From IMG/VR virus record IMGVR_UViG_3300009506_000005, positions 49,770 to 113,769 of that record: DNA of 64,000 bases; one strand, 5' to 3'. Position numbers and translations under genes: made by a program. The notes under the pieces are model-generated. The model had not been told where the DNA came from and did no database searches. It saw nothing but the letters and a program-made list of their open reading frames with translations. Of this stretch, positions 28,811-64,000 are shown one piece after another. Source of the DNA: a virus. Positions within the stretch are counted from its first letter, which is position 1. Every line of letters starts with the position of its first letter.

Positions 28811-30256
28811 ATGGTTCTCGCCATAACGAAGAAAACGGAATCAGATCTCACCGACTGGCTTGCCACGGAGGCCGGGTTCCTCCAGGGGCTGTGCCGGTAT
28901 GACGAGGAGCCGATCAAGCTCGACGCCTACCAGGCGGCGTTCCTGTCCCAGGACAACAAGTACCGCTGTGTGGAGAAGGCCAGGCAGGTTGGATTCTCGT
29001 TTCTCTTCGCCCTGGAGGCCGTGGCCAGATGCCACCTGCGGCCAGCTCAGACCTCGGTCTTCGTGTCCTACAATCTGAGCGACTCCAAGGAGAAGATCGG
29101 GTACGCGCGCCAGCTCTACGAGGAGATGCCCGCCGCGTATCAGAAGAAGCTGATCGTTGACTCCAAGCTGGAGCTCGCCTTCGAGAGCAACGGCTCCAAG
29201 AAGGTGAGCAGGATCATCTCCAACCCCAGCCGCGCGCCCCGCGGGAAGAAAGGGGACATCTACCTGGACGAGCTCGCGCACTATGTGGACGACAGGAGCG
29301 TCTACAAGGGATCCACCGCGCTCATCCTCCGCTCCCGCGGCCAACTGTCCATCTGCTCCACGCCCCTCGGGCGCCGCGGGGTCTTCTGGGAGATCGCGCG
29401 CCAGGAGCTCAAGCCGTACCGAGCCTACAAGAGACAGCGCGTGCCGTGGTGGCTCTGCCGGTTCTTCTGCGTGGACGTGGAGAAGGCAGCCGTGGATGCG
29501 CCGCACATGCCAACGGAGGATCGCGTCAAGCGTTTCGGTTCGGAGGGCATCGTCGATCAGTTTGATTCCCTCCTCCTCGAAGACTTCCAGCAAGAGTTCG
29601 AGCACGAGTACATCGATGAGAGCTACTCGTTCTTCCCCTACGACCTGATCATGCCCTGCACGGACGACCCCAGGGAGGGCGAGCTGGGGGGCTTGGACTT
29701 CTGGCGTGACGTGACCGATGCCGGCAGGGTAAGAGGGCGCCTCATTGCGGGGTTCGATGTCGGGCGTCACCGGGACTTGTCCGAGCTCGCCATCTTCGAG
29801 GAGATAGGAGAGCACAAGTTCTGCCGCATGCTCCAGCGCTTCGATCGCGTGCCGTTCGCCGTCCAGGAGGAGGAGTGCCGGCGCGTTCTCAACACCCTAC
29901 CGATCGCGCGTTTCTGTATCGACTCCACCGGGATCGGGATGCACCTGGCAGAGAACCTCTCCGTGGACTTCCCGCAGATCCAAGAGGTCACGTTCAGCAA
30001 CGAGGTGAAGGAGACCCTCTGCAACGATTTCAAGATCCTGCTCCAGCAACGCAGGATGACGCTCCCGAGCGATCGCGAGCTCGTGGCGCAGATTCACTCC
30101 ATCAAGCGCCGTGTCACCTCCACGGGGAAGGCCAAGTTCGAATCGGAGTCCACAGGGAAGGGGCATGCCGATCGATTCTGGGCGTGTGCCCTCGCTGTGC
30201 AGAAGGAGCGTGTCCCCATAGGCAAGCCCAGCGTGGGCTTCCGGGTAGTTGGATGA
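28811..30256 (+). CDS. terL: terminase large subunit
   Basis: KARQVGFS Walker A, IYLDE Walker [17 protein letters not shown]. Confidence 0.95.
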
Positions 30257-30301: not shown

Positions 30302-30598
30302 ATGAGACCTCAGCAAAAAGCACTTGATATCCCGGCCGCCATCGGCCAGGGGGCGCCCATCGATGTTTTCAACTTCCGGGATTCCTCGGTTCAGATCGGC
30401 GGCACGTTCGTGGCCACCATCCAGATCGAGGGGCGCCTGGACGATTCGATGCCGTGGAGCGCGATCGGTTCTCCCGTGACGGCTCCCGGGTTCGTGGACC
30501 TCCCCCACATCGTGAAGGACATCCGTGCGAATGTGACCGGATACACGTCCGGCACCCCCGAGGGCTTCTTCGCTGGGTTCAACGCGAGGACCGAGTAA
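30302..30598 (+). CDS. small beta-rich virion-associated protein
   Basis: between terL and portal; VQIGGTFVATIQIEG. Confidence 0.55.
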   Translation: MRPQQKALDIPAAIGQGAPIDVFNFRDSSVQIGGTFVATIQIEGRLDDSMPWSAIGSPVTAPGFVDLPHIVKDIRANVTGYTSGTPEGFFAGFNARTE

Positions 30599-32418
30599 TG
30601 AGCGATGCGCCTGACAGCGTGAAGCTCAAGGTCGTCGAGAGTGCTGCGGACGGCACGGAGAAGAACAGGGAGATCATCTTCAAGGTAGCTGGAGAGGGTG
30701 CCGGCCTGGAGAGCAACGCGGTGGTCTCCACTCAGGAGACGGAGAATGGGTTCCTCGCGCTCGGAGCAATCGACCCTCCATACCCGCCAGATTCTCTCTG
30801 CCGCATCTTCGAGCACTCAAATTCGCTGAGGCAGTGCGTGGACGCATACGTCACGAACATTGAGAGCTTTGGCTTCCGGCTCGATCCGTTGATCGACTTC
30901 GAGAGCAGTGAGGCCGATGAGCAGATCGCCGATGCGATCTGGTTGTCTCGCGGAGGTGGCAGCGATCGGCCGTCCGATCAGGAGGTTGCCGAGAAGAAGA
31001 AGGAGATGGTGGCCGAGGCCGTCATGGAGAAGGCCAGCCTTCTCCGCTTCTTCGGTCAGGTGGGACTCGACCTCAACCTCACGTCCCTGCGCAAGAGAAA
31101 GCGCGGAGACCAGGAGGTGCAGGGGAACGCGTACTGGGAGATCCTCAGGAGCAAGAGCGGGGAGCCGGCACGGTTCGTCCACGTTCCGGCGCAGACCGTC
31201 CGCTTGATGCCGCTCGATCCTCGCATAGTGACCGTCAGGGAGAAGGTGAGGTCCTCGGTCTTTGCCTACACGGAGAAGCCGGCGAGGAAGCGCTTCCGCA
31301 AGTACGTCCAGATGATCAACGGGATGCCCACCGTCTACTTCAAGCAGTTCGGCGATCCGCGCACCTACTCGAAGAAGACAGGGGATGAGATCAGAGATCC
31401 CGAGTCTCATCAATGGGACTCAGGAGATGGTCCGGCGACGGAGATCATCCACTTCGAGATCTACTCGCCGAGGAGCGCCTACGGCGTGCCGCGGTGGATC
31501 GGTGCTCTGCTTTCCGTCCTCGGTTCTCGCAGTGCCGAGGAGGTCAACTACTACTACTTCGAGAACAAGGCCGTTCCCCCTCTTGCCATCCTCGTGAGCG
31601 GGGGACGTCTGGCTGAGGAGGCGATCCCTCGTCTGGAAACGTTCATCAAGGAGAACCTCCAGGGCTCCACGAAATCATTCCACAAGATCATGATCCTGGA
31701 GGCTGAGGGGGAGAAGGGTGGCGGAACAGCCGGGAACGTGAAGATCGAGATCAAGCCCCTGACCGAGGCCATGATACAGGAGGAGCTGTTCTCGAAGTAC
31801 GATGAGCGGAACATCGACAAGGTGGGGGAGGCGTTCCGTCTTCCGCGCATTCTCCGCGGGCAGTCCAAGGACTTCAACCGCGCTACTAGCCTGAGCGCCT
31901 TGCGGTTCGGCGAGGAGCAGGTCTTCCAGCCGGAGCGTGACGAGTTCGATGCGTGGATCAACCGCGAGATCTTCCCCCTGCTCAACTCGCGCTACTGGAT
32001 TTTCCGGACGAACGCACCGCTCACCCGCGATCCAGAACGCATGACGGAAATGGTCGTGAAGCTCGTGGAGGTGGGTGTTCTGACTCCGAACGAGGGGCGC
32101 CTGCTCGCGGGAGACATCTTCAACAGGGACTTCCGGGAGATCCGCGAGGACTGGGGACGCCAGCCGTTGAAGATGACTCTTGCGGGGATCAAGGGAGGGA
32201 ACGGCCAGAAGGGTGCCGATGGCATGGCCCTCGACGTTGTTGGTGGAAACGATCTGGACAAGATGCGCGATGGAGATGGGCGGGAGACGGTCATGTTCAA
32301 GGTAGCGAATCTTCAGGCGCTCCGGGACCTCTGCGATCAGCGTCTATCGGACATCGACGATCATCTGCTTGCCCAGGATCTTGAGGCGTTCCCCGAGATG
32401 GACGAGCTGGAGGAGTAG
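30598..32418 (+). CDS. portal protein
   Basis: GNAYWEI, YGVPRW, YFEN.AVP, AFRLP..L, LTPNEGR. Confidence 0.92.
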   Translation: MSDAPDSVKLKVVESAADGTEKNREIIFKVAGEGAGLESNAVVSTQETENGFLALGAIDPPYPPDSLCRIFEHSNSLRQCVDAYVTNIESFGFRLDPLIDFESSEADEQIADAIWLSRGGGSDRPSDQEVAEKKKEMVAEAVMEKASLLRFFGQVGLDLNLTSLRKRKRGDQEVQGNAYWEILRSKSGEPARFVHVPAQTVRLMPLDPRIVTVREKVRSSVFAYTEKPARKRFRKYVQMINGMPTVYFKQFGDPRTYSKKTGDEIRDPESHQWDSGDGPATEIIHFEIYSPRSAYGVPRWIGALLSVLGSRSAEEVNYYYFENKAVPPLAILVSGGRLAEEAIPRLETFIKENLQGSTKSFHKIMILEAEGEKGGGTAGNVKIEIKPLTEAMIQEELFSKYDERNIDKVGEAFRLPRILRGQSKDFNRATSLSALRFGEEQVFQPERDEFDAWINREIFPLLNSRYWIFRTNAPLTRDPERMTEMVVKLVEVGVLTPNEGRLLAGDIFNRDFREIREDWGRQPLKMTLAGIKGGNGQKGADGMALDVVGGNDLDKMRDGDGRETVMFKVANLQALRDLCDQRLSDIDDHLLAQDLEAFPEMDELEE

Positions 32419-34568: not shown

Positions 34569-35003
34569 ATGACCGAGGAAGAGAAGAAAGACGGGAAGGG
34601 GAAAGAGGGCGAGAAGGACGGGAAGGACGAGAAGAAGGGTGACGAGGAGAAGAAGCCCGAGGAGGGAAAAGGGGGCGAGGGTGCCGCTGGCGACAAGGGC
34701 GGTGATGACAAGGAGAAGGATGGGGACGACGCCAAGGGCAAGGATGGCGGCGGTGATGACAAGGGGGACAAGGGTGGCGACGATGGAGGCGAGAAGCCGG
34801 TCAAGGACAAGCCCGAGTCCGGCGGTGAGGGTGGCGGCGGTAGTGACAAGGAAGACGGGAAAGGCGGGGACAGCGGGGGTGACGAGAAGGACTCCGGTGG
34901 TGATGGAGACGGCGACAAGGACTTCGCGTGGCCCGCTGATATGAACGCCAAGGAAGAGGACGAGAAGGACAAGATCAGCTTCGGAGACGACCCCGTCTTC
35001 TAG
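34569..35003 (+). CDS. low-complexity G/D/K/E protein with scaffold-like C-terminal motif
   Basis: composition; WPADMN...ISFGD. Confidence 0.65.
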   Translation: MTEEEKKDGKGKEGEKDGKDEKKGDEEKKPEEGKGGEGAAGDKGGDDKEKDGDDAKGKDGGGDDKGDKGGDDGGEKPVKDKPESGGEGGGGSDKEDGKGGDSGGDEKDSGGDGDGDKDFAWPADMNAKEEDEKDKISFGDDPVF

Positions 35004-35012
35004 GAGGTCCCC

Positions 35013-38000
35013 GTGGGCAAGAGAGAAGGGAACTATCGAGCGCCGACCGGGAAGGTCTCGGGTGGCAGGAAGCCGGCGGCGAAGCGCGAGGACGTCGAGG
35101 CGACGATCGAGCTTGGCGAGGAGTCCGCTACCGCAGTGCTATCAGCGCGTTCGCTCGCGCAGAAGTTCGCCGAGGTGGCCGCTGGGTTCGATGACGATGT
35201 GATCGATCCACTTCGCGAGTGCGAGGTGGGAGAGAACGCGGTGGAGATCCTGGAGATCCTTCCGCTCGTCTCGAAGAATCTGGCAGCCGAGTTCTCACGC
35301 CTCCAGGATGAAGGTGGCGATGGGGAAGTCCCGCAGGTGGATACGGGCGATCCGCTGGAGATCGGCGCCGCCCTTCTCTCTTGCTCAGCGAACGTCAGGA
35401 AGTCCCTGGAGGACGCCCCGCGGGACATCGTAGAGGCCGTGGACCAGGGCATCGATTCCCTGCGGGCCTTTCTCTCGTTGCCGGATCAGCTCGATGGAGA
35501 GGACCATGCGGCTGAGTTCTTCACGAAGGCTGACCGCATTCCGAAGCCGTTCCGCTCGCCGGGTGGAAAGGCGCAGCTCGTCAACGTTCTTCTGTCCAGG
35601 GTTCCCGAGCACAAGGTCTACGTGGAGCCCTACGCTGGCTCGGCCACGCTGTTCTGGGCGAAGAAGAAGGTGGAGAAGGAGGTGCTTTCTGACCTGAACG
35701 AGGGCGTCGTGGGGCTGTTCAAGTTCTTGCAGGAGGCCGGAGAGGCGGACTTCGAGTGGATGCGGAAGCAGATCTGGGGCTACGACGCGGTCAACTTCAA
35801 TAAGCTCAAGGAGAAGGAGAGCGGCTCCGCACGCTACAAGGCATATCGCTTCAAGTACCTGAACCTCTACTCCATGCGCGGGCGTGGCGAGACCATCGAT
35901 GATTCCCCGCGCTCTCGCGGTCAGACGGGTGCCCTGTTCCTGCGGAACCTGGAGCGCTACAAGGAGCGCCTCGAAAACGTTCGTGTCATCCACGGTGACG
36001 CCCTGGAGGTGATGAAGAAGTACGATCGCTCTGGCGTCTTCATGTACATCGATCCTCCCTGGCGTCCAGAGCAGGGTTCTCCCGAGTGGAAGGCCTACGA
36101 CCACGAGGCGTTCGAGAAGGCGGTCAGTGGACTGAAAGCGAACGCCTTGGTCTCCTACCAGGGGAAGCTCGTACTGGGAGATGGATGGCGGAAGCACAAG
36201 CACACGAGCGTGCTGGGTGGCATCTCTAAGGAGACCACGCAATCCCTCTACTGGAACTACAACTTCCGTGGCGTTGAAGCCAAGCGCGAAGGGACGTCCG
36301 GATGCGAATTCTGCGATGCTCTCGCGGCCGAAGCCTTCGTCTGGGATGGCGGCATCATCAAGTCGTGTCACGAGCACGAGAGCCAGGCGCGCGAGCTGAT
36401 CGAGAACGTGAACAAGTCCGAGGTCCTGGCCGTCCGGGATTGCGAGCTACCCGAGCAGGAGGAGGTGGCGAAGCTCTCCATCGATGAGATGAACCCGCGC
36501 AGCCTGCGAGAGGTCAGCGACAGGGAGCTGCTATCCCTCAACCGGCGCCTGCATCAACTGTATGGCAAGAACTTCGAGGGCAACGACAAGATCACGTCTG
36601 GAGACCTGAACCGAGAGGATCTGGTCAACGCCTACATCTTCGTCTCGAACGAGATGAAGACGCGGGAGATGGAGCTGAACGATACTTCCTTGGCGATCGA
36701 GGCGCGGACGCTCGCCAAGGAAGAGGGGAAGAAGGAGCTTGCTCCGGTACTCCCGGGATCATCCGGCGCGCATCCGCTGATCAAGATCGAGGAGGTGCTC
36801 CCGCACTTCAAGTCCTTCAAGATCCGCATGCCGTTCCTTTGGCTCGTTGGCTCGCTTGCGAACATGGGCAAGACGGAGAACGACATCGACCTCCTCGTGA
36901 AGGGGCCCTGCTCCGAGGAGCTGCTCCAGGTGCTCAAGTTCCGTCTCGGGCGCATGTTGCCGCCGGAGCTGAGCAAGCGCCTGTCGGTGATGGAAGACGA
37001 GCTGGGTGGCCCGTTCACCTCGCATGTGGAGCTCGCCGACCTCGTGGTGGAGATGAGGCCGGCGTTTGCGGTCAAGGAGATGGCGCTCGCCAAGCAGGAC
37101 GACCCGCTCCTGGACTTGCCGAAGGAGGCCGGGAAGAAGAAGGCCGTCTTCCAGTACCACGCACGTGGGTCAAGCTTGCATCTGGATCTCAGGATGGAGC
37201 TCGCCGACTTCCTCGTGGGCTGGACCATGGCCAACCAGCGCTCTGGTAAGGTGCCAGTGATTGAGACGATGGACGAGTTGAAGAGGATCGGCTCCTCGTT
37301 CTCGCCGGACGGTGACCAGTACACGAAGCCCTTCCGCTCGCCAGCGAGACTGGCTGCGTTCCCGAAGAGCAGGCAGCCGGAAGTCTGGCTGGGGATATCA
37401 GCCAGGCGGTTCGAGCCCGGCGAGGTAGGCGCCTCGCGGAACGAGTACGGCGTGATCGTGGCCGTGGATCGGCCCTCTGTCGAGTACGGTACCCAATCAA
37501 GCCGCTTCCACGAATACTTCTTCACTGGGAAGGACGCCGCCGTGCAGGGCATTCTCGCCTTCCGCCAGCTCGTGGGGAGGGGAAAGGCCATCAAGCTGGA
37601 GGGCGAGGGGGGCGATCCATTCGAGGAGGGGCGCCGCACGCCGGCTGGCCGCACCTTCTGGACCTCGATGCTCACCTCCTCGGCGCTACCCTCCGTCCTC
37701 AAGCGGCGCGCAGTGCACGAGGGCCGAATGCCGCCCGATGGGAAGAGCGCGATCCCCATCTCGCTGGAGAGGGTCACGCCCAAGGAGTTCCGCTACTGGG
37801 AGGCCAAGGGTAAGGAGGCACGCGAGATCCGCGATGCGCTGGTCTCCTCCCGCTTCTTCACCGAGCAGAACGTAGGCATCGTGGACGGCGAGTTCCGGCG
37901 CCTCGTCCAGAAGACCTACCTCTACACCGGCGACGGCTCTGATTTCACGTTCAAGGCCGAGTCCGAGCCATTCGCCTTGTCTTGGCAGAGGTGGAAGGGT

Positions 38001-39902
38001 CAGAGCGTTGTGAGGACCGGGCCCAGCCGCCAGGTGTGGCACCTGACAGTCGGTGGTCTCCCTGGCTGGAAGCTCCAGCGTGATCCCCTCGCGGGTGACG
38101 AGGTGACGGCCGTCGAGAAGCCGAAGGCCAACTCCGCGCTCTTCGAGCTCGAAGGTGATGTCGAGCCTGGAAAGGAGCTTGGCGGCGAGGTCCTGAACGA
38201 TACCAAGGCCACGCCCTCGGAGATCTCCATCGTCGATGAGGGCCGGGCGGAGATCATCGACAGGAAGCCCGGGCTCATCCGCCTGCGGTTCAGGGGCAAG
38301 AAGCTCCAGGGGATCTACACGCTGGAGGCCGAGGAGAAGGGATCGGAGATCTGGACGTTCGCCAAGGATGCCGAGGCAGAGAAGAGAGAGGAGGACGACC
38401 CCTGGAAGACGGGTGATGTGGAGTTGGCGGACATCGAGGACACGGAGAAGGCGATCCCCGTCCGTGGAGGGGTGCAGATCTGGGACCCTGAGAAAAAGGA
38501 CCCGAACGTTGACCGCGAGCAGCTGGAGCCACTGGCCATCTTTTCTCCGATGAAGCCGGCGAAGCGGTTCGATGACACGGCTGCGGCCGTCAAGGAGTGG
38601 GGCCATGGCGCCGCCATCGAGCACGGCGTGTTCGTGGAGCCCAAGGAGAACGGTTTTAGATTCAGCGTCCAGAAGAAGGGCGATCAGGTCTTCTCGTTCA
38701 CCGAGGACGAGAAGCGGGACTTGCTTCCGCTGCTTCCAACGGTGCGCGAGGCTCTGGAGAGAATCCCCGGGGAATGGATCCTGGACACCGAGTTCATGGA
38801 GGAGGAAGAGGGCGGTGGGTTTGTTCCGCGTCGTGACTTGGCGAGGTTCAGGGGGAAGGAGCCGCAGGACGACAAGCGCGTGCGCTTGAAGGTGGTTGAC
38901 CTGCTCTACCACAACGGCCGCAACTTGCTCGGACGCCCGTACCACGAGCGCCGCTCTGCCCTGCGTCGGTTCTTCGATGGGAAGAAGACGCTGGGACCGC
39001 TGGTCATCACGCCCACGAAGCTGGCGAAGAGCGCTGAGCAGCTGCAACGAGCGATCGCCTGGGCTCGCAAGGTTCCTGGGTCCGAGGGCGCCATGCTCAA
39101 GCTGTACGGATCCACTTACTCCCTCGGTGGCGAGAACTCGGCGTGGGCGAAGATCAAGGACTCGCGAGAGATTCGCGCCATCGTCTACGAGAGACATCCT
39201 GTCAAGGATTCGCCCGGGGTCTACAACTTCTTCGGCGCCGTGGGGCCCGTGCGCGAGGATGAGTGGAATGAGACTGTGGAGGTCGGAGGAAAGACCTACA
39301 CGCCGGTGGGGCGCACCTTCAACTCGAAGGAGGAGGCCGAGGTCGGAGATGTCATCCGCGTGGAGGCCACGGAGATCCTCGTTGACGCGAGTGGCGACAA
39401 GAAGTCACTGCGCTGGTTCACGCCCACGGTGATCGAACGGGTGGACACGAGACCAATGACGGCGGCCGATGTCGTAAGGCTGGCGAAGCCCGAGGAGATC
39501 AAGAAGATCGCGGACGCCATCCTCCAGCGCGAGATCCCCATCTTCAAGGCTGACGAAGAGCGGCTCGTCTACGGCGAGGTCCTCATCCCCGAGGAGGTGG
39601 ACGCGCAGAAAGAGATCTACAGCGAGGAGGAGGTGCGCCAGGCGGCCCACGGGTTCATGGAGAACTTCCAGAACCTCGGTGTCATGCACAAGGAGCTCGC
39701 GAACGGGCGCCTCAAGATCCTGGAGAGCTTCATCGCCCCGGTGGAGATGGAGATCGCTGGGAAGAAGATCAAGAAGGGCACATGGCTCCTCGCCGTCCGC
39801 GTGATTTCGGACAAGCTGTGGAAGCAGGTGAAGGACGGAAAATGGACCGGATTTTCTATCGGCGGATCGGCCGTTCGCGTGGCGGAAACCTCGGCAACTT
39901 GA
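35013..39902 (+). CDS. polyprotein: Dam/D12-type methylase - Zn finger - nucleotidyltransferase - LigD phosphoesterase-like x2 - ATP-dependent ligase - XkdF prohead protease
   Basis: PGGK/VEPYAGS/SDLN/DPPW; GS..DID; QYH..HLDLR; KENGFR/DTE/DLL/EGAMLK/WAKIK; ERLVYGEVLIP/MH/GFSIGG. Confidence 0.85.
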   Translation: MGKREGNYRAPTGKVSGGRKPAAKREDVEATIELGEESATAVLSARSLAQKFAEVAAGFDDDVIDPLRECEVGENAVEILEILPLVSKNLAAEFSRLQDEGGDGEVPQVDTGDPLEIGAALLSCSANVRKSLEDAPRDIVEAVDQGIDSLRAFLSLPDQLDGEDHAAEFFTKADRIPKPFRSPGGKAQLVNVLLSRVPEHKVYVEPYAGSATLFWAKKKVEKEVLSDLNEGVVGLFKFLQEAGEADFEWMRKQIWGYDAVNFNKLKEKESGSARYKAYRFKYLNLYSMRGRGETIDDSPRSRGQTGALFLRNLERYKERLENVRVIHGDALEVMKKYDRSGVFMYIDPPWRPEQGSPEWKAYDHEAFEKAVSGLKANALVSYQGKLVLGDGWRKHKHTSVLGGISKETTQSLYWNYNFRGVEAKREGTSGCEFCDALAAEAFVWDGGIIKSCHEHESQARELIENVNKSEVLAVRDCELPEQEEVAKLSIDEMNPRSLREVSDRELLSLNRRLHQLYGKNFEGNDKITSGDLNREDLVNAYIFVSNEMKTREMELNDTSLAIEARTLAKEEGKKELAPVLPGSSGAHPLIKIEEVLPHFKSFKIRMPFLWLVGSLANMGKTENDIDLLVKGPCSEELLQVLKFRLGRMLPPELSKRLSVMEDELGGPFTSHVELADLVVEMRPAFAVKEMALAKQDDPLLDLPKEAGKKKAVFQYHARGSSLHLDLRMELADFLVGWTMANQRSGKVPVIETMDELKRIGSSFSPDGDQYTKPFRSPARLAAFPKSRQPEVWLGISARRFEPGEVGASRNEYGVIVAVDRPSVEYGTQSSRFHEYFFTGKDAAVQGILAFRQLVGRGKAIKLEGEGGDPFEEGRRTPAGRTFWTSMLTSSALPSVLKRRAVHEGRMPPDGKSAIPISLERVTPKEFRYWEAKGKEAREIRDALVSSRFFTEQNVGIVDGEFRRLVQKTYLYTGDGSDFTFKAESEPFALSWQRWKGQSVVRTGPSRQVWHLTVGGLPGWKLQRDPLAGDEVTAVEKPKANSALFELEGDVEPGKELGGEVLNDTKATPSEISIVDEGRAEIIDRKPGLIRLRFRGKKLQGIYTLEAEEKGSEIWTFAKDAEAEKREEDDPWKTGDVELADIEDTEKAIPVRGGVQIWDPEKKDPNVDREQLEPLAIFSPMKPAKRFDDTAAAVKEWGHGAAIEHGVFVEPKENGFRFSVQKKGDQVFSFTEDEKRDLLPLLPTVREALERIPGEWILDTEFMEEEEGGGFVPRRDLARFRGKEPQDDKRVRLKVVDLLYHNGRNLLGRPYHERRSALRRFFDGKKTLGPLVITPTKLAKSAEQLQRAIAWARKVPGSEGAMLKLYGSTYSLGGENSAWAKIKDSREIRAIVYERHPVKDSPGVYNFFGAVGPVREDEWNETVEVGGKTYTPVGRTFNSKEEAEVGDVIRVEATEILVDASGDKKSLRWFTPTVIERVDTRPMTAADVVRLAKPEEIKKIADAILQREIPIFKADEERLVYGEVLIPEEVDAQKEIYSEEEVRQAAHGFMENFQNLGVMHKELANGRLKILESFIAPVEMEIAGKKIKKGTWLLAVRVISDKLWKQVKDGKWTGFSIGGSAVRVAETSAT

Positions 39903-39936
39903 CAAGCCCTACATTCAGGCGGCAAAATATCACCAA

Positions 39937-39966
39937 TTGACACGGGTATTTCGGAGCGGGTAGGAT
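39937..39966 (+). promoter_or_regulatory. promoter for scaffold-capsid genes
   Basis: TTGACA-N18-TAGGAT in a 200-bp intergenic gap. Confidence 0.55.
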
Positions 39967-40102: not shown

Positions 40103-41212
40103 GTGGATTTTCTGGACCACTTGGCGAGCATCGAGAAGCAGGTCACGCGCCTGTTGGACATCGAGGTCAAGGAGGTCTCTGTTGTGGACCGTGCGGCCAA
40201 CAAGCGCCGCTTTCTCATCGTCAAAAGGGAGGACGACATGCCGGATCCCATCGGTAAAGAAGTGAAAGAAGACGGGCAGGGTAACCTCTCGACCGAGGAG
40301 GACAAGATGGAGGAGGAGGACGAGAAGAAGGCAGACGCCCCTCTTCACGCCAAGCTCGCCGGCGAGGCGATCGACTCCCTCATCATGAAGGTGACCGGCC
40401 TGCGGGAGAAGCTCACGAGCGGCATGGCCACTCTGGAGGAGATCAACGACCTGAGCAGCGCCTTCTGGCCGCTCATGGACTCCCTGCGCTCGGCTGCGGT
40501 GGTGATCGCCAAGGCCGACGTGGAGAAGGCCGACATGGAGATCCCGAAGCCCGTCAAGGAGGCTGTCCTGCGGACGGCCACCGAGGCGATGGAGCGCCTG
40601 CTCTCGGCTGTCAACGGTCTCAAGGAGGCCCAGACGAACGATGAGCAGTCCGACGCCCCGCTGCCCGAGGAGTACACCAAGGAGTTCAGCGCGATCGCCG
40701 GGCTGCTCTCCGGAATCTCCGAGAAGTACCCGTCGCCGAAGTCCGCCGCCTGCGGGGACAAGGAGAAGGCGAAGAAGGGCGACGCGGAGAAGTCCGATGC
40801 CATGGAGAAGGTCATCGACAAGCTCGATGCCATCTCCAAGAAGGTGGACAGCGCCCTCTCCAGCGTGAAGAAGGTGGACGAGGAGGAGGAGAAGAAGGGC
40901 GACTCCAAGGAGGAGAAGGGCGGCGAGGGCGAGGAGGAAGAGAAGCCGAAGGCAGAGGAAGGCAAGAAGCCCGAAGGCGACGGCGAGGCCAAGGAGGTGG
41001 AGAAGGCCCTGGCCAAGCGCGACAAGGAGATCACCGATCTTCGCGAGCAGGTCGCGAAGCAGGCGGAGAAGATCACCGCACTCGAAGAGGCGGATATCGC
41101 CCCCAACTCGTCAGCCCCCGAGGGCGTGGCGAAGATGGAGGAAGAGGATCCGTGCTGGCGAAGTGACATGGCGGACGAGTCCGAGGTGGACGCGGACGTT
41201 TCCTTCGATTAG
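40103..41212 (+). CDS. capsid scaffold protein with N-terminal protease segment
   Basis: EVSVVDRAAN; acidic helical body; internal SD + ATG at 40238; precedes MCP. Confidence 0.75.
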   Translation: MDFLDHLASIEKQVTRLLDIEVKEVSVVDRAANKRRFLIVKREDDMPDPIGKEVKEDGQGNLSTEEDKMEEEDEKKADAPLHAKLAGEAIDSLIMKVTGLREKLTSGMATLEEINDLSSAFWPLMDSLRSAAVVIAKADVEKADMEIPKPVKEAVLRTATEAMERLLSAVNGLKEAQTNDEQSDAPLPEEYTKEFSAIAGLLSGISEKYPSPKSAACGDKEKAKKGDAEKSDAMEKVIDKLDAISKKVDSALSSVKKVDEEEEKKGDSKEEKGGEGEEEEKPKAEEGKKPEGDGEAKEVEKALAKRDKEITDLREQVAKQAEKITALEEADIAPNSSAPEGVAKMEEEDPCWRSDMADESEVDADVSFD

Positions 41213-41281: not shown

Positions 41282-42217
41282 ATGAACGACAACCGCTCGA
41301 TCATCGAAAAAGCGGACCTCGCCGTAAGCGATCTGATCTCGGGAGGGGGCTATCTCCAACCGGCACAGGCGGCGAAGTTCATTCGGCTCTTGATCAAGGA
41401 GAGCTCGGTCATGAACATGGCGTCGGTCAAGCCGATGAAGGCCCCGAAGGAGCTGATCGAGAAGATCCGCTTCGGTTCCCGGGTCCTGCGCGCTGGCACC
41501 GAGGCCGTGGCGCTTCCGGTGGCGGACCGGGTGAAGCCGGACCTCACCAAGACGGAGCTGGACGCCAAGCTGTTCAAGGCGGAGACGCGGATCAGCTACG
41601 AGGCGCTGGAGGACTCCATCGAGAGGGGCCAGCTCAAGAACACGATCATGCAGGAGCTCGGCAAGGCCGTCGCCCGGGACATGGACGAGGTGATCGTGAA
41701 CGGCGACACCGCGAGCGCCGACACCTTCCTCGCGCAGCTCGACGGCCTGCTCAAGCAGACCACGAGCAACGTGACGGACGCCCTGATCGCCCCGCTGGAC
41801 AAGGACATCCTGCGGGACATGCTCAAGGCGATGCCGAGCGAGTGGCTCCGCGACAAGAAGGCGATGCGGTTCATCACCTCCGTGGACGCCCTGCTCGACT
41901 ACCGCAACACGCTCGCGGACCGCGAGACCGTGGCCGGGGACCGGTGGCTCACCGAGGACGTGCCGATCATGTACTCCGGTGTGCCGCTCGTGGACGCGCC
42001 GCTCTTCCCGGAGAACCTCGGCGCGGGGAGCAACGAGACGAACGTCCTGCTCTCCGACCCGAAGAACATCCAGGTCGGCATCTGGCGGCAGATCCGCCTG
42101 GAGACGCAGAAGGACGCCCCGGCCGGCGTGCTCATCATCGTGGCGACCCTCCGCTTCGACGTGAAGTGGGTCGAGGAGACCGCCGCGGTGAAGTGCATCA
42201 AGGTCAAGGTGGCCTAG
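41282..42217 (+). CDS. major capsid protein (HK97 fold)
   Basis: [28 protein letters not shown]; position. Confidence 0.92.
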
Positions 42218-45954: not shown

Positions 45955-46781
45955 TGACGGATCCGAAGGCCACCTCTGCGAACGGAACGAGCCAGACCAA
46001 CTGGGAGGTGGGTCCTGACGCAACGCATGGCGTGAAGAGAGAGAACGGGGAGCTGGCCCTGTACGATCCGGTCAGCGGAACCAGGAAGATGACGGAGCTC
46101 GGTGCCAACTCACCTCTCGTGTTGACCTTTCAAGCATTCCCAACGGCCAACGGTATCATCAACCTCGTTGGTGGTTACGAGCAGACGGATGCTGCGGCGG
46201 TCGTGACGAGTGCAGCGCCGTACACATCGGCGCACCCCTACTTCAACTCGAGGCTGTATGCTGACATCACTGCGATCACCGGGGAACCTTTCACTTTGAG
46301 AATCACAGGTACCTCTGTGAGTCAGGTCGACGCGTCGTTGACTCCAGCCGACACAGAGGACATTAATGTCACTGGTATCGGAAAGTACGCGTCGACGAAG
46401 TACTGGATCACAGCACCACAAGTCAGCATCGTAGAGGCGTCCAAGTCAGCCACGATGGATTTGTCCAAGGCGTTTGCCTATGCGCTTGGTGGAAAGAAGC
46501 TGACCGTGAAAGGTCTTATACTTCTCTGGACCCCTGACGGCACGACCTGGGACCTCGAGGTCAGGATGGTGCGAGTGGCCAACGACGGAACGCTGTCGGA
46601 CGTCTTCAATGTCGTCTTGCATTCCACAGACACGCCTCCGTGGGCTGCCAACTTGGAGCTTGGGAGATATAAGCTGTCCAGTCTAAGCGAGGTTGTCGAT
46701 GGAACAGCCGGGGAAGGGGTCTATTTGTACGCTGATCAGCAAAAGATTGCGGATCTTCTAGTAGGGATAGAGTATGAGTAA
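45954..46781 (+). CDS. putative virion structural protein
   Basis: Thr/Ala-rich beta protein. Confidence 0.5.
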   Translation: MTDPKATSANGTSQTNWEVGPDATHGVKRENGELALYDPVSGTRKMTELGANSPLVLTFQAFPTANGIINLVGGYEQTDAAAVVTSAAPYTSAHPYFNSRLYADITAITGEPFTLRITGTSVSQVDASLTPADTEDINVTGIGKYASTKYWITAPQVSIVEASKSATMDLSKAFAYALGGKKLTVKGLILLWTPDGTTWDLEVRMVRVANDGTLSDVFNVVLHSTDTPPWAANLELGRYKLSSLSEVVDGTAGEGVYLYADQQKIADLLVGIEYE

Positions 46782-48057
46782 TACACAGAAATATTTTCGG
46801 CTGGACGAGCCTTCGCTTTGTGATTGCTCACAAAAGAATGTTGTTGATTCTGAAGACTGCGTCCTGATAAACGATTGCTGCAATGATGGCGCTCCAAGAA
46901 CGGTAAAGGCACATTCTGTGGCAAGGGTCCCGGAAGTATTTAATGTGCAGACGGATGACTATACGCTTGAGCAAGACGATGCGATCAAGACGATTCAAAT
47001 TTCCATGGAGACAACCGCGTTTGTGACGGTGCCAAAGAATCAGACTATCTCTATTGGAATTGGATCTGTTTTCAATATCGATAATATCTGCGATGAGAAT
47101 GTGATAGTGATGCTGGACTCTGGAGTGGTCCTGCGCTCTAGAGACGGTGCAAATATCATCCCTCCATATTCGTCAGCCCGTCTCAAGAAGATAGGCGAAG
47201 ACGAGTGGTTGCTTACTGGGGATCTCTCTGGAAGCACTCCGAAATTTACATGCACAAGCACTGGGGTCCTGAGCATTATCACGAGAGGACCAGCCGATAC
47301 TGGAATGTGGGTGAATTGGGGAGATGGTTCAGATCTTGAATGGATAGCTCACGTTGGGATATCGACGGATGTAACAACAAACCACGATTACGACGGATCG
47401 CCAGGAACAAAGGAGATCGCCTTCACGGGTCTTCTTGAGCAGATTACCAAGTTCAGGGTGACGGATCCTGAATTTGGCGGGTCCATGCAGGCAGTGGCAG
47501 CGTTTGCAGGTCTCACATATTTGAATCTGGCATTCACAGCTATTGAGGGATCTCTTGAAGACATCTCAGGTTTGACGTCATTGGAGGTAGTGTATCTATA
47601 CAACATAGATGGTCTTGTTGGAGATCTTGAGGCACTCGTTCCGCTCACAAATATCACCCATCTTTACCTGTATAGCACCGGAATACAGGGAGACGTTTCA
47701 GAGCTGTATTGCCTGTCATCAATGAGAGATTTTCGTGTCAACAGTCTTGGCGCTTCAATAGTGGGAAACGTGGGATCACTTTCAGCATGGGAAGAGTTGA
47801 CTTGCCTGTACGTTCAGTACACGTCTGCTAGCTACGTGACCGCAGTTCTCCCCGTGTGGGATGGGATATTGTGGAGATTCCAAGGATGTGCACTGACTGA
47901 ATTGGAAGTAGACAGCGTTTTGATAGATCTTGCTTCCAGTGGTTCCGTGAATGGGAACTTGAATATCTCCGGAGACAACGCTGCGAGATCCTCGGCGAGT
48001 GATTCCGCATTGGCTACACTGTTGGCAAATGGATGGACGGTAACGGTTAATGAGTGA
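46774..48057 (+). CDS. leucine-rich-repeat protein with PKD-like motif
   Basis: NWGDGS; repeats G(S/D)L..L..LT.L..L.L..T.I; lower GC. Confidence 0.7.
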   Translation: MSNTQKYFRLDEPSLCDCSQKNVVDSEDCVLINDCCNDGAPRTVKAHSVARVPEVFNVQTDDYTLEQDDAIKTIQISMETTAFVTVPKNQTISIGIGSVFNIDNICDENVIVMLDSGVVLRSRDGANIIPPYSSARLKKIGEDEWLLTGDLSGSTPKFTCTSTGVLSIITRGPADTGMWVNWGDGSDLEWIAHVGISTDVTTNHDYDGSPGTKEIAFTGLLEQITKFRVTDPEFGGSMQAVAAFAGLTYLNLAFTAIEGSLEDISGLTSLEVVYLYNIDGLVGDLEALVPLTNITHLYLYSTGIQGDVSELYCLSSMRDFRVNSLGASIVGNVGSLSAWEELTCLYVQYTSASYVTAVLPVWDGILWRFQGCALTELEVDSVLIDLASSGSVNGNLNISGDNAARSSASDSALATLLANGWTVTVNE

Positions 48058-56557: not shown

Positions 56558-59191
56558 ATGGCACTCGCCAACATGGGGGCTGGGTTCACGCTTGTTGCGA
56601 AGGATCTGGCGTCCCCCGTGTTGGGGCGCGTGGGCAACAACTTCATGCGCATGGGCAGCCGGGTGGAGAAGACCTCGGCTGGCATGGCGGCGGGGTTCCA
56701 GGCGATGGCCGTCGGGATGGGGGCGCTCAAGATCGGGACGGGGATCACGGGTGCTGTCGGTGCGGCGGCTGAGGCCGCAGGTGGATTCCAGCAAGGGATC
56801 GCGGCGATCGGTGTCATCTCCGGGGCCACCTCAGACGAGCTCAACCAGCTGCACGACGCGGCGATCAACGCGGCGCTTGGGACGAAGTTCTCGCCGGACG
56901 AGGCGGTGGAGGGCCTGACGAACCTGGCCACGGCCGGGCAGACGGCGCAGGAGCAGATGAGCACCCTCATCCCCGTGCTCGACCTGGCCACCGGGTCGCT
57001 GGGGCAGCTCGGACTTGGCGAGGCGTCAGCGGCCGTTGTCGGTACGCTCAAGGCGTTTGGCGAGGGCGCGGACCAGGCTGCGGTCACGACGGACAAGCTC
57101 CTCAAGATCACGCAGATGACCAACTTCCAGGCGCGCGACTTTGGTGTGGGGCTTTCTCGGGCAGCTACGTCAGCGGCCCTCTACAAGCAGAGCTTGGACG
57201 ATACCCTGATCGCCATGGGTCTGTTGCGGAACATGAACATCGAGGCGAGCGTGGCGTCCACCGGGCTGCGGGAATCATTCGCGCGCCTGGCGACGGACGA
57301 ACGCACCCAGCAACTCCTGGCGAAGAAGGGGGTCAAGGTCTTTGACGAGAGGACGAAGGCCGTGCGGCCCTTCCTCGATGTGATGGGGGACCTGGCGGTG
57401 AAGCTCAAGGACGCGAAGGATGCGGAGGCGTTCCTGACGACAACCCTTGGCTTCGGGCGCCGCGGCATGGCGGCGTTCAACGCCGTGGCCAACGCTCAGA
57501 AGACGATCATGGTCAACGGCCGCGAGGTGTCCCTCAAGGGTGCCCAGGCGATCGAGGCCATGCGGTTCGAGATCGCGAAATACGATACAGATCAGCAACG
57601 CGCGGAGGCGGCAACGAAACTCAGCACGGCCACGCTCCGTGAGTGGGGGAAGACGGCGAAGGGATCCAAGGGCGCCGCACTCGAATTCAGGGAGGCCCTA
57701 CTCGACACGGCGCAGGGGCAGAAGGAGCTGCTCCAGGGGTCGATAGAGACGCTCAAGACCGTGGTAGGCGAGGGAGCTCTGCCAATCATGAAGGTGATTC
57801 GCATGGCGCTGTTCAACGTGACGAGCGCGATCACCAATCTGCTCAACGCCATGCCCCCGTCCGTCCGCACCGCGATCCTCGGCGTGTTCGGGGCCATCGG
57901 AGGCATCGTCGCATCGGCCGGGGCCTTCCTCGTGTTGAAGGGCATCTTCGTGGTGCTCGGCCTGTCGATCACTGGCCTGGCGCTTTCGTTCTTGAAGCTG
58001 GCGCTTGTCATGGCGCCGATCACACTGCTCTTCGCCGGTCTTGCCGTCTCCGCTTTCGCCGCGTTCAAGGCGATCACCAAGGGCACCGGTCTCGCCGCTG
58101 ACTCCTGGTCAAACTTCGTGGACAAGGTGAAGCTCGGCTTCACGGCCATTACCGAGCTCTGGACCAGCGGCGCACTGTCATCGGAAACTACCAAGGAGCT
58201 GGAGAAGGTCGAGAACCAGGGTCTCATGCCGATCTTGGAGAGCTTCAATCGGTTCCTGAACAGGGCAGAGGCCTTCTGGGAGGGGTTGAAGGCTGGGTTC
58301 GACGTCGGCGTGGAGGGACTGACGGAACCCATGCGGGAACTGCGCCAGGCGGTGGCCGAGCTCTTCGGAAGAGATGGCGAGACGCTCACCGGACCCATCG
58401 GCGAGTGGAAGACGGCCGGCCAGGAGGTTGGTGCAACCCTCGGCGGCCTGGGGGAGATCATGCTTCGTGTCTTCACCGGGGCGATCAAGTTGATGACAGA
58501 GCTCAAGGGGCAGATGAAGGGGGTCTCTGCGGGTGATGTGGTGAGCGGGATTTTGAAGGTGGTCTCCGTCTTCACCACGCTCTGGAACGTGATCAAGTTC
58601 ATCAAGAACGCCGTGATGACAGTGATCGATCTAGTGGTCCTGAGCACGAACATCTGGGTGGAGATGTTCGGTTCCATCGTCCAGGGGGCAATGACAGCCT
58701 TCGGCGTGATCAAGAAGCTGGCCACGCTCGATTTCAGCGGTGCCATGGAGACGGCGAAGTCAGGCTTCCGCGGAATCGTCGAGTCCTTCAAGGGAGGCGG
58801 GATCCTGTCATCCGTCGAGCGTATCTCCACGCGCTTCGGTGGCCCGGACCTCGATGCGGTGCGTGGCGGCCTGGAGGGCGTCCAGGACTTCGCCGGGCCG
58901 ACGAAGTCCTCTGAGGAGATCCTGGGTGATACGGTGGCGAAGCTAGGGCGCCTCCGCAGGGAGCGCGAGGGAGTTCTGGAGGCGGCCGCAGCTCGTGGTG
59001 GGAGTGGCATGGACCCGGAGCTCATGCTGTCTGCTCTGGAGCGCATCGACAAGGGAATCGCCACGCTCTCCAAGAAGCGCGATGAGATCAAGGTGGAGGT
59101 CGATGGCGAGACGCTGTTCAACATCATGCAACAGCGAGATCGCGAGGGCCTGGAGCGGAGTATGGGGTCCGAGGCCCTGGAGGAGGTGTGA
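56558..59191 (+). CDS. tape measure protein (TP901-type domain)
   Basis: GAT.DEL, TKFSP.EA.EGL..LA.AG; hydrophobic middle. Confidence 0.92.
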
Positions 59192-60164: not shown

Positions 60165-61499
60165 ATGCCCTTCGCTGACGTCCGTCTCTTCGTCAAGCTG
60201 ATCCACGCGGACGAGGGAGAGAAGCTGCTCGGCTTCCTCCAGGACCGCCTGCTCTCCTTCACGTTCGATGACTCGGACAACAAGGTGGACCAGGCAGAGT
60301 TCAGGCTGCGGAACACGGACTTCAAGCTGTTCGATGAGCCAGCTTTCGTGAAGGGGCAGCGTCTCCGGATTCGATGGGGATACCCAGGAGACATGAGCGC
60401 ACCGCGCGACGTCATCATCCAGAAGATCAGCGGATCGGATCCCATCACCATCAAGGGGCGTTCTCCCGTGGTCCTGCTCGACAGGAAGCGGCGCCAGAGG
60501 TTGTGGAAGAACACCACGCACTCTGACATCGCGGTCCAGATCGCCGGCGAGTATGGCTACGAAGGTGAGCTGCTATCCGTCGAGGAGACAGACCAGATCT
60601 ATGGTGAAGTTCAGCAACGTATCTCTGACATGCGCTTTCTGGCGAAGCTCGCGAAGCGGAACGGCTTTGTCTTCTACATCGATCACCTCGGCTTTCACTG
60701 GCACAAGCGTCCTTTCGAGCTGACGCCATCTCACATCTACATCTACTCCACGGACCCGGGACAGGGGGATATCCTGTCGCTGCCGAAGGTGACTGCGAAC
60801 CTGACGAAGGGCGTGACCCGCGTGCGGTCCCTTGCGCGCGATCCGGTGACGAAGGAGTGGGTCGAGGCCTACGGGTCGTCGAAGGACACGGAGTTCGTGT
60901 CCCTGGGCAAGGAGGAGGAGGACGGGGACCCGGACAACTATGAGGGCGAGCGTCAACAGCGTGTGACCAGGCAGGTTGATAGACCCATCTTCCTCATGCC
61001 CACGGCAGAGGCGAAGCTCAGGGCGGACGCGCGCTGGCGCCTGACGGCCGAAGGCCGCTACAAGGTCGAGTTCAACGCATTGGGGCGCCCGCAGATCGGC
61101 GCGAAGCAAGTGGTCGAGGTGCTCAACATCTCCGATACGTGGAGCGGGAACTACTACCTGAACAACGTCCGCACCCAGATCCAGCCCGGGAGCTTCATCC
61201 AGACCATAAAAGGCACGAAGAACGCCCTGGACAAGGTGCCGTCCCTCCTCAAGAAGACGCTGGACCAGAACATCAACGACAGCAAGGGCGGTGGTGGCGG
61301 GCTCACGAAGCACGCTGTCTTGATGCGTGGGCCCGGGGACGAGTTCATCCTGGGTTGGGTGTGGGAGGACTCCAAGGGAAACAGGAAGGGCGATGCGAAG
61401 CCACTCACCGCAGAGGAGTTCGCGGCATTGCCAGAGCAGAAGCGCAAGACGTGGGAGCGGAACGGCGTGGTAGTACCGCGCACGGCGGGACCAGGTTGA
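60165..61499 (+). CDS. baseplate hub (late control D-like)
   Basis: WGY, SD.A..IA.EYG, SD..FL..LA.R.GF, G.P, SG.YY. Confidence 0.85.
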   Translation: MPFADVRLFVKLIHADEGEKLLGFLQDRLLSFTFDDSDNKVDQAEFRLRNTDFKLFDEPAFVKGQRLRIRWGYPGDMSAPRDVIIQKISGSDPITIKGRSPVVLLDRKRRQRLWKNTTHSDIAVQIAGEYGYEGELLSVEETDQIYGEVQQRISDMRFLAKLAKRNGFVFYIDHLGFHWHKRPFELTPSHIYIYSTDPGQGDILSLPKVTANLTKGVTRVRSLARDPVTKEWVEAYGSSKDTEFVSLGKEEEDGDPDNYEGERQQRVTRQVDRPIFLMPTAEAKLRADARWRLTAEGRYKVEFNALGRPQIGAKQVVEVLNISDTWSGNYYLNNVRTQIQPGSFIQTIKGTKNALDKVPSLLKKTLDQNINDSKGGGGGLTKHAVLMRGPGDEFILGWVWEDSKGNRKGDAKPLTAEEFAALPEQKRKTWERNGVVVPRTAGPG

Positions 61500-63579: not shown

Positions 63580-64000
63580 ATGGCACTCCTACCAACGAGC
63601 TACGACTATACAGACCGTGATTTCGATGCCTTACGCGAGCGCCTCATCGATCTCGCCACCTCGGTGTTTCCCGATTGGACGGACTTCGAGATCGCCAACT
63701 TTGGCAACATCATGATGGAGATGTTCTGCTTCGTTGGAGACGTTGTCACGTTCTATGAGGACAAGCAGGCACCCGAGGGGCGCTGGCTGTTCGTGCAGCT
63801 GCGCAAGAACGCGATCGCCCTGGCGAAGCTGATTGGCTACGAGCTGAGCGGCGCCACGGCAGCTACGGCAGACACGGTGATCAGCCTGGTCAACGGTCCG
63901 CTGCCAGGGGACGTGAACATCCCCATCTTCTCTGAGATTCGTACCGAGGAGGTGACGGACCCGATCAGGGGGCAGATCCAGGAGGCCGCCACCATCCCAG
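63580..64000 (+). CDS. baseplate J/gp6-like wedge protein (truncated by window edge)
   Basis: DYTDRDFDALR, FPDWTD, N.G, LAKLIGY. Confidence 0.85.
   Translation, partial: MALLPTSYDYTDRDFDALRERLIDLATSVFPDWTDFEIANFGNIMMEMFCFVGDVVTFYEDKQAPEGRWLFVQLRKNAIALAKLIGYELSGATAATADTVISLVNGPLPGDVNIPIFSEIRTEEVTDPIRGQIQEAATIP

Follow-up and report, generated by a model that had tools for sequence, protein, structure and literature searches.

A phage head-module polyprotein in which a methylase and a LigD-like block of domains precede a predicted XkdF-type prohead protease

Why would a phage carry a DNA methylase, a nucleotidyltransferase (NTase), two domains with the fold of the LigD 3'-phosphoesterase (PE1 and PE2) and a DNA ligase in one chain with the protease predicted to mature its capsid? 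The question is raised by the IMG/VR virus record IMGVR_UViG_3300009506_000005 (113,769 bp, rated 100% complete), the right-hand 64 kb of which (positions 49,770 to 113,769; 64,000 nucleotides, here called the window) were analysed. A single open frame of 1629 codons on the + strand (window 35013-39902) encodes the product in question, P0001, a polyprotein of ~179 kDa. On balance, P0001 is probably a “polyvalent” protein of the head module, with a C-terminal XkdF domain that serves as prohead protease and with cargo enzymes that are packaged in the capsid. We are less sure that the cargo is delivered to the host and repairs DNA there than that it is packaged. This view builds on the identities of the domains, the position of the gene, the conservation of the core across a family and the variability of the cargo. 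An earlier sequence-only reading of the window had named the same domains and the prohead-protease slot. All of these calls held, down to the residue positions (DPPW 347-350, CxxC 431-434, CxxH 452-455, G613/S614, D624/D626, Q714, H716, H723, D725, R727, and K1211 within KENGFR), while its interpretation as an anti-restriction kit, in which the cargo methylates, heals and religates the genome, is something that we infer at most.

The frame itself starts with GTG, and its ribosome-binding site, a perfect AGGAGG, overlaps the stop codon of the preceding gene. In DNA of ~62% G+C with many long spurious antisense ORFs, so long a frame might arise by chance or as an assembly chimera. Against this speak three Pfam domains that exceed their thresholds, two fold assignments made with confidence and the perfect Shine-Dalgarno sequence, and the polyprotein is not an assembly chimera, because dozens of independent contigs, at 40-73% identity, show this architecture as well. 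The explanation was rejected on the strength of this homologue set, and the chance that it is nevertheless correct is negligible.

The XkdF domain and its head-gene setting

The C-terminal domain, previously placed at residues 1513-1629, matches Peptidase_S78_2/XkdF (PF14550) at 1512-1623 with 102.3 bits against a cut-off of 24, covering profile positions 7-125 of 126 (Pfam); a scan of the genome gave 107.6 bits. D1530, H1559 and S1615 are present in all members that have an XkdF domain (55/55), are also invariant in the stand-alone XkdF proteins of the cultured phages PAK_P3 and RHph_TM16, and are candidate catalytic residues. Neither a second XkdF domain nor an HK97-type S78 protease was found in the whole genome. 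Within these two protease families (XkdF/Peptidase_S78_2 and HK97-type S78), the tail domain of the polyprotein is predicted to be the phage's only detectable head-maturation protease. A literature search for the biochemistry of XkdF found none.

The gene order is large terminase (TerL), portal, MuF-like protein, a 144-aa low-complexity ORF, the polyprotein, a scaffold-like ORF and the major capsid protein. The position between portal/MuF and scaffold/capsid is that of a prohead protease, as had been proposed. The same domain, with the invariant Asp/His/Ser and in the same post-portal slot, stands alone in PAK_P3 (gp3, 138 aa) and RHph_TM16 (gp142, 210 aa), and there, too, the next gene is scaffold-like and opens with a related motif. 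However, these proteins are bare domains, whereas here ~1500 residues of enzymes lie ahead of XkdF. In many GenBank records of Pseudomonas, Escherichia and Lactococcus phages, bare XkdF (PAK_P3 gp3, L090:2919-3335; RHph_TM16 gp142, L089:6992-7624) is labelled “DNA methyltransferase”, probably an annotation that was carried over from methylase-XkdF fusions and that could be corrected.

Such fusions are abundant. A word-indexed search returned ~60 proteins of 985-2373 aa with the same core, and an exhaustive HMMER search with residues 600-1130 returned 1043 representatives at E ≤ 1e-3 and 243 at E ≤ 1e-30; the family is counted as clusters at 50% identity from metagenomes, of which there are >1000. 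In IMG/VR, at least 96 loci carry the core, and ~50 of them show portal, MuF, a polyprotein ending in XkdF, scaffold and capsid (tblastn). Throughout these ~50 viral contigs, XkdF is strictly the last domain and the scaffold and capsid genes come next, while the cargo is shuffled: the ligase is absent in many members or placed ahead of PE1, and the methylase occurs in 0-3 copies per member, at differing junctions. In a second large group, three tandem methylases are fused to XkdF, with no repair block detectable by BLASTP. Interchangeable N-terminal cargo, for which a survey of XkdF proteins had been proposed, is seen among the relatives. They also add a C5 methylase, a 2H phosphoesterase, an MBL-fold domain, an inorganic pyrophosphatase and a short Tad3-like segment (31 bits vs. 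a cut-off of 27), Tad3 being a published inhibitor of the Thoeris sensor ThsB. Among 50,697 GenBank phage records, the unit of PE1 and the helical domain behind it occurs in one only, the uncultured archaeal virus ANMV-1; the family is almost absent from cultured phages.

A link between the protease domain and the scaffold is suggested by the scaffold itself. The scaffold proteins of 30 relatives are 18-44% identical to the one encoded here, yet all open with a near-invariant motif (consensus EVSLVDRAANKRRFLIVKR, residues 24-42 here), which in this phage lies within EVSVVDRAANKRRFLIVKR (window 40139-40216). A related motif opens the gene behind the stand-alone XkdF of RHph_TM16 (L089:7596-7775) and a looser version opens PAK_P3 gp4 (L090:3328-3507), so that XkdF-type head modules may generally use the motif as a tag for docking or cleavage. 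A predicted complex of XkdF (residues 1495-1629) with scaffold residues 1-70 scored 0.84, the best control 0.01; the mark applied to this score was passed by 58 of 80 solved complexes and by 2 of 110 mismatched pairs, counts that are approximate, since own alignments were used. The runs share at least 68% of contacts, with a partner pLDDT of at least 51, and scaffold residues 13-38 face residues 1554-1559 and 1610-1625, i.e., the side bearing H1559 and S1615. The model thus supports, without showing, that the XkdF domain binds the N-terminal motif of the scaffold. Should this contact exist, the protease would dock on, or cut first, the N-terminal end of the scaffold, and the polyprotein would be pulled into the procapsid as a whole.

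Potential processing sites are found between the domains. Aligning the family reveals a conserved Lys with A, T or Q behind it at ~172, 692, 981, 1146 and 1508, in otherwise variable linkers, and the scaffold has similar K-A-D sites, as has the capsid protein at its residue 10. Placement and conservation are suggestive, and the Lys junctions can be taken as a lead to putative cleavage sites of the protease.

The enzymes ahead of the protease domain

The N-terminal region, residues 1-172, has no family match in Pfam. It is followed by the methylase, read before as a Dam/D12-type enzyme at ~173-423: MethyltransfD12 (PF02086) matches residues 183-383 with 69.4 bits (cut-off 22; Pfam), the catalytic motif DPPW and a SAM-binding motif (EPYAGS, 205-210) are in place, and a PDB sequence search leads to Dam structures. 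The methylase is the sole PADLOC match, and no other D12 methylase was found in the whole genome. The CxxC...CxxH pattern behind it, a putative zinc finger, is present as described and common only to the nearest homologues. For the minimal NTase, the motif G[SG]...DxD of the Pol-beta fold is near-invariant (G613 in 54, D624 in 55 and D626 in 56 of 58 members) and the fold match to MNT antitoxins is modest (best Z 5.9, 8xeo_B, 72 residues, rmsd 3.3), in keeping with the earlier call. Pfam NTP_transf_2 gave no match to it at E ≤ 1; its language-model neighbours are NTP_transf_2/Polbeta clusters at 0.86-0.88, a lead at most.

That the chain contains two domains with the LigD-PE fold, an eight-stranded beta-barrel, follows from predicted structures and PDB fold searches. 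AlphaFold models of residues 560-1185 (pLDDT 83) and 690-985 (pLDDT 90.7, pTM 0.87) were made with family alignments, and for both models seven PDB LigD-PE entries top the Foldseek list, with probability 1.00 for all seven. In an unbiased VIA-align search of 48,161 chains, PE1 (708-888) matches 3p4h_A with Z 13.8 and rmsd 2.1 over 117/118 residues and 3n9b_A with Z 11.6, the next unrelated match reaching only 3.6; PE2 (984-1121) matches 3p43 with Z 15.0 and rmsd 2.3 over 117 residues (VIA-align). Both the phosphoesterase-like motif and the second, degenerate segment that had been noticed in the letters are thereby accounted for, the latter as a PE fold without the HxDxR motif. By sequence alone the signal is faint: LigD_N (PF13298) stays below threshold (15.5 bits vs. 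31.1), as does TIGR02777 (16.7 bits vs. 144), the hints of a LigD phosphoesterase having E 0.02 (Pfam) and 0.005 (NCBIfam). The family profile reaches 3p43 at E 6e-5; an hhalign comparison of the PE1 and PE2 profiles is weak (probability 10.8%, E 0.0028) but consistent in register, and phmmer with PE1 alone against PDB sequences gave no match.

PE1 residues H716, H723, D725, R727, K785, W792 and E834 are invariant in 58/58 sequences and thus the most conserved of the family. Six residues are essential in the PE domain of Pseudomonas LigD, namely His42, His48, Asp50, Arg52, His84 and Tyr88 (PMC3300020). By a correspondence drawn from secondary structure and motif, not from superposition, PE1 keeps four of them (H716, H723, D725, R727), together with the equivalent of Gln40 (Q714). 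PE1 thus appears to retain the metal-binding residues, whereas PE2 is degenerate. In homologues (P0016, P0040, P0026, P0059), inteins (Hint + LAGLIDADG) are inserted into PE1, behind the equivalents of residues 720 and 827, and into the NTase, behind that of residue 668. Positions 720 and 827 lie in the active-site strands of PE1; since the intein sites adjoin invariant residues, they are under strong constraint. The 87-residue helical/small-strand domain (889-975), conserved and always behind PE1, found no match in a fold search whose lists were filled by the PE domain, so that the missing match is no evidence of a new fold. A BFVD search gave a single weak viral match.

The ligase, an ATP-dependent enzyme with OB fold according to the sequence-only reading, is recognised as such by Pfam and NCBIfam profiles. 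DNA_ligase_A_M (PF01068) covers residues 1185-1382 with 69.6 bits against a cut-off of 26.2, and 4eq5 is matched at E 3e-10 by the sequence alone and at 1e-15 by the profile; among the PDB sequences retrieved are DNA ligases of archaea and eukaryotes as well as the ligase domain of M. tuberculosis LigD. K1211 (KENGFR), D1258/E1260, E1358-G-x3-K1363 and K1380/K1382 (motifs III, IV and V) are conserved. The NCBIfam model NHEJ_ligase_lig aligns over 19-287 of its 302 positions, up to residue 1492, and thus spans the putative OB domain. No other ATP- or NAD-dependent ligase was found in the whole genome.

Bacterial LigD, a POL-PE-LIG chain that acts with Ku in non-homologous end joining (NHEJ; PMC3300020, PMC8656161), offers a close comparison for this block. 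Enzymes of the LigD-PE superfamily are Mn-dependent 3'-phosphatases that also resect 3'-ribonucleosides. Like LigD, the polyprotein unites a Mn-type PE fold, a ligase with OB domain and a nucleotide-adding domain in one chain, and its PE1 has equivalents of Gln40, His42, His48, Asp50 and Arg52. Unlike LigD, it has a Pol-beta-type NTase of ~100 residues instead of the primase-polymerase domain, two PE domains, one of them degenerate, substitutions in PE1 and in ligase motif I, and a fusion to a viral capsid protease. No AEP primase-polymerase family is among its Pfam and NCBIfam matches, and Ku was not found in the whole genome. By analogy, the polyprotein may work like LigD in outline, but it is not a LigD.

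Packaging, delivery and the alternatives

Polyvalent proteins, in which many unrelated enzymatic domains share one chain encoded beside portal and MuF genes, are an established concept (Iyer, Burroughs, Anand, de Souza, Aravind 2017, PMC5512222). According to the searched passages of that survey, such proteins are predicted to travel inside the head and to enter the host along with the DNA; they often include adenine methylases and MNT-type NTases and only rarely an assemblin-like peptidase, which is then always C-terminal and probably serves virion processing, and 2H domains were never seen with RNA ligases (PMC5512222). The polyprotein resembles them in its several unrelated effector domains (methylase, NTase, two PE, ligase and protease) and in its late head-gene neighbourhood with portal, terminase and MuF. 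In contrast, the anchors named in these passages are MuF, portal and a zincin peptidase, whereas XkdF takes this role here, and the core of a family of >1000 clusters is formed by a conserved NTase-PE-PE-ligase block. In the same passages, neither a LigD-type phosphoesterase nor an ATP-dependent DNA ligase comes up, and a literature search for XkdF fusions or a LigD-like repair core on such proteins found none. The general concept has been published already, while the XkdF anchor and the LigD-like repair core were not found in print.

Internal proteins of phage T4 and Alt are loaded into the prohead via a capsid-targeting peptide, trimmed by the gp21 protease and injected to act against host restriction. 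In the Dar system of phage P1, the methylase-helicase DarB resides in the head, alongside DdrB, and as a virion methylase it is a published precedent, as described in the passages searched (PMC5512222). The proposed use of the polyprotein is similar in that enzymes or inhibitors are loaded into the prohead, trimmed and injected. It would differ in that the T4 and P1 cargo is separate and relies on a targeting peptide or on loaders, whereas here the protease would be the covalent handle.

How might this proceed? The protease domain is predicted to bind the N-terminal motif of the scaffold, by which the 179-kDa chain would enter the procapsid. The protease would then cut the scaffold and its own inter-domain junctions, probably beside the conserved Lys, and the folded enzymes would stay in the head as internal proteins and exit with the DNA at the next infection. 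There, the adenine methylase could modify the incoming genome, and the LigD-like block, with a Pol-beta-type NTase in place of the primase-polymerase, might clean 3' ends and reseal breaks made by host nucleases. Loading of cargo via XkdF is indirectly supported because XkdF is strictly C-terminal ahead of the scaffold and capsid genes while the cargo shuffles, because relatives carry counter-defence-like domains, because the Lys-containing junction motifs are conserved, and because docking of the protease domain on the N-terminal end of the scaffold is predicted.

Several observations weigh against packaging and delivery of a repair machine. A cargo of 179 kDa per protease copy is bulky for a head that holds 114 kb, and a BLASTP comparison with the scaffold and MuF proteins, in search of a targeting peptide that they share with the polyprotein, gave nothing significant. 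In the phrog_3017 profile, the motif (4-33) stands in cis, directly ahead of the protease (35-157); given such an arrangement in some XkdF proteins, the complex prediction may partly reflect a learned likeness and not binding. The junction motif [hydrophobic/E/T/A]-K-[A/T]-x, which was defined after seeing the sequence, is not enriched (4 observed vs. 2.8 expected). In PE1, the position of His84 (788) is Q/E/M and that of Tyr88 (792) is an invariant Trp, and ligase motif I reads KxNG, not KxDG, in 45 of 51 aligned members; the activities may therefore differ from those of LigD. Moreover, the ligase is the sole one found in the phage genome, which also fits an ordinary role in replication.

The head-module position and the predicted scaffold docking would look the same if the cargo were loaded into, or tethered at, the procapsid and worked in the producing cell, where it would methylate DNA, seal nicks and clean ends during packaging or in the filled head, with no delivery. 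The terminase is of the T4-like headful type, a head-associated ligase could remove nicks, and small cofactors could reach the procapsid interior. However, methylases, the Tad3-like piece and the 2H and MBL-fold domains make most sense early in the next infection, and published head-packaged effectors act after injection, which makes this explanation unlikely. We would rate a little lower still the idea that the fusion merely ensures co-expression of late enzymes, the chain being cut in the cytoplasm and only XkdF entering the procapsid, so that the methylase would be an orphan enzyme and the ligase would serve replication or recombination. It is true that the ORF holds the genome's only found ligase and D12 methylase, and that the NTase-ligase-PE block occurs without XkdF in ANMV-1 and in some metagenomic relatives, which means that it can work unfused. 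In ANMV-1, an 866-aa “ATP-dependent DNA ligase” (KP703175, AJP62006.1) matches residues 575-1474 at ~30% identity. Unlike the polyprotein, it has neither XkdF nor methylase and lies outside any recognisable head module; its PE1 unit appears to fall in the C-terminal half (~480-722 of 866; tblastn), so that the order may be permuted. Yet many relatives have no ligase, or only methylases on XkdF, XkdF is always last with the scaffold gene next despite the shuffled cargo, and replication would need its enzyme earlier than a late head operon, with the gene placed behind portal and MuF, would supply it.

The core could also act on RNA or on nucleotide signals: PE1 might heal 2',3'-cyclic-phosphate/3'-phosphate RNA ends or open cyclic oligonucleotides, the NTase might neutralise HEPN-type RNases by nucleotidylation, and the ligase might reseal RNA. 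By fold, the NTase is indeed nearest to the MNT antitoxins of HEPN toxins, domains of phosphodiesterase type (2H, MBL-fold) occur in relatives, and the active site of PE1 departs from that of LigD. In the passages searched, NTases of polyvalent proteins are predicted to nucleotidylate proteins (PMC5512222). Against this stand the agreement of the ligase with profiles and structures of DNA ligases, its OB domain, the absence of a detectable 5'-kinase domain, and the association of the module with DNA methylases; an action on RNA or signals is improbable.

Returning to a packaged cargo with XkdF as prohead protease, a further-reaching version of it can be formulated, which is possible although we doubt it: the capsid brings a methylase and a LigD-like machine for healing and sealing into the host, the protease serves as the covalent handle on the scaffold motif, the ligase may arrive pre-adenylated, restriction or CRISPR cuts are repaired and the incoming genome is methylated within the first minutes, and such repair-based counter-defence is widespread in uncultured phages. 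If the cargo is packaged and delivered, counter-defence would consist in repairing and re-marking the phage's own DNA on arrival, not in blocking host nucleases. The XkdF domain and the scaffold motif might then provide a natural modular handle for loading chosen proteins into capsids, and the ligase (KxNG) and phosphoesterase variants would be new material for enzymology.

Feature coordinates and neighbouring genes

Coordinates of the polyprotein, its domains and the surrounding head genes (window positions; residues are those of P0001 unless stated otherwise)
Feature	Residues	Window position	Strand	Basis
Large terminase, Terminase_6 type		28811..30256	+	profile
Portal protein		30454..32418	+	profile
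MuF-like minor head protein	699 aa	32428..34527	+	profile
ORF of nearly all K, D, E, G with short hydrophobic C-terminal tail	144 aa	34569-35003	+	sequence
Shine-Dalgarno AGGAGG		35002..35007	+	5 nt ahead of GTG start
Polyprotein gene P0001	1629 aa	35013..39902	+	ORF
N-terminal region	1-172	35013..35528	+	common only to closest homologue P0003
D12-class N6-adenine DNA methyltransferase, DPPW 347-350	173-425	35529..36287	+	profiles, motif
CxxC...CxxH zinc-finger-like element	431-455	36303..36377	+	sequence only
Minimal Pol-beta-fold NTase (G613, S614, D624, D626)	591-690	36783..37082	+	motif, weak fold match
PE1, LigD 3'-phosphoesterase fold with insertions	708-888	37134..37676	+	AlphaFold model, fold search
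Helical/small-strand domain	889-975	37677..37937	+	conserved, always behind PE1
PE2, canonical LigD-PE fold without HxDxR catalytic motif	984-1121	37962..38375	+	model, fold search
ATP-dependent DNA ligase nucleotidyltransferase domain	1185-1382	38565..39158	+	Pfam, PDB matches, motifs
Ligase OB-fold domain	1383-1495	39159..39497	+	NHEJ_ligase_lig model to residue 1492
XkdF-type (Peptidase_S78_2, PF14550) prohead protease domain	1512-1623	39546..39881	+	Pfam
Two sigma-70-like promoters, perfect TTGACA		39899..39966	+	200-nt gap ahead of scaffold gene
Acidic scaffold-like protein	369 aa	40103..41212	+	position, composition
Scaffold motif region predicted to dock on XkdF	13-38 of scaffold	40139-40216	+	predicted complex
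Major capsid protein, HK97 fold family		41282..42217	+	profile

The two sigma-70-like promoters in the 200-nt gap (2 found vs. 0.1 in shuffles) imply that scaffold and capsid could be produced in excess over the polyprotein. In the relatives, in contrast to the gap seen here, the scaffold ORF abuts or overlaps the stop of the polyprotein. RNA folding of the gap revealed nothing unusual (z 0.36). Upstream of the polyprotein, the family match of the MuF-like protein is confined to residues 274-362, and its long flanking parts could make it a second cargo-carrying head protein. The 144-aa ORF has no family match; its product may be an internal protein of the head or may mimic DNA.

Of ten other large proteins encoded in the genome (up to 1109 aa), eight have no match in PHROGs and two match only families of unknown function; the phage is very distant from cultured ones. 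In the tail region, only a tape-measure-like protein (56558-59191) and a GPD hub (60165-61499) are recognised. The genome ends in an exact terminal repeat of 144 bp (window 63857-64000 and genome 1-144), which, given the T4-type terminase, may be an assembly overlap of a circularly permuted genome and not mark physical ends. Finally, window positions 46001-48000 have a G+C content of 0.507, compared to ~0.62 elsewhere, and contain most of a 427-aa ORF (46774-48057) with a leucine-rich-repeat match, which may be a recently acquired host-recognition or moron gene.

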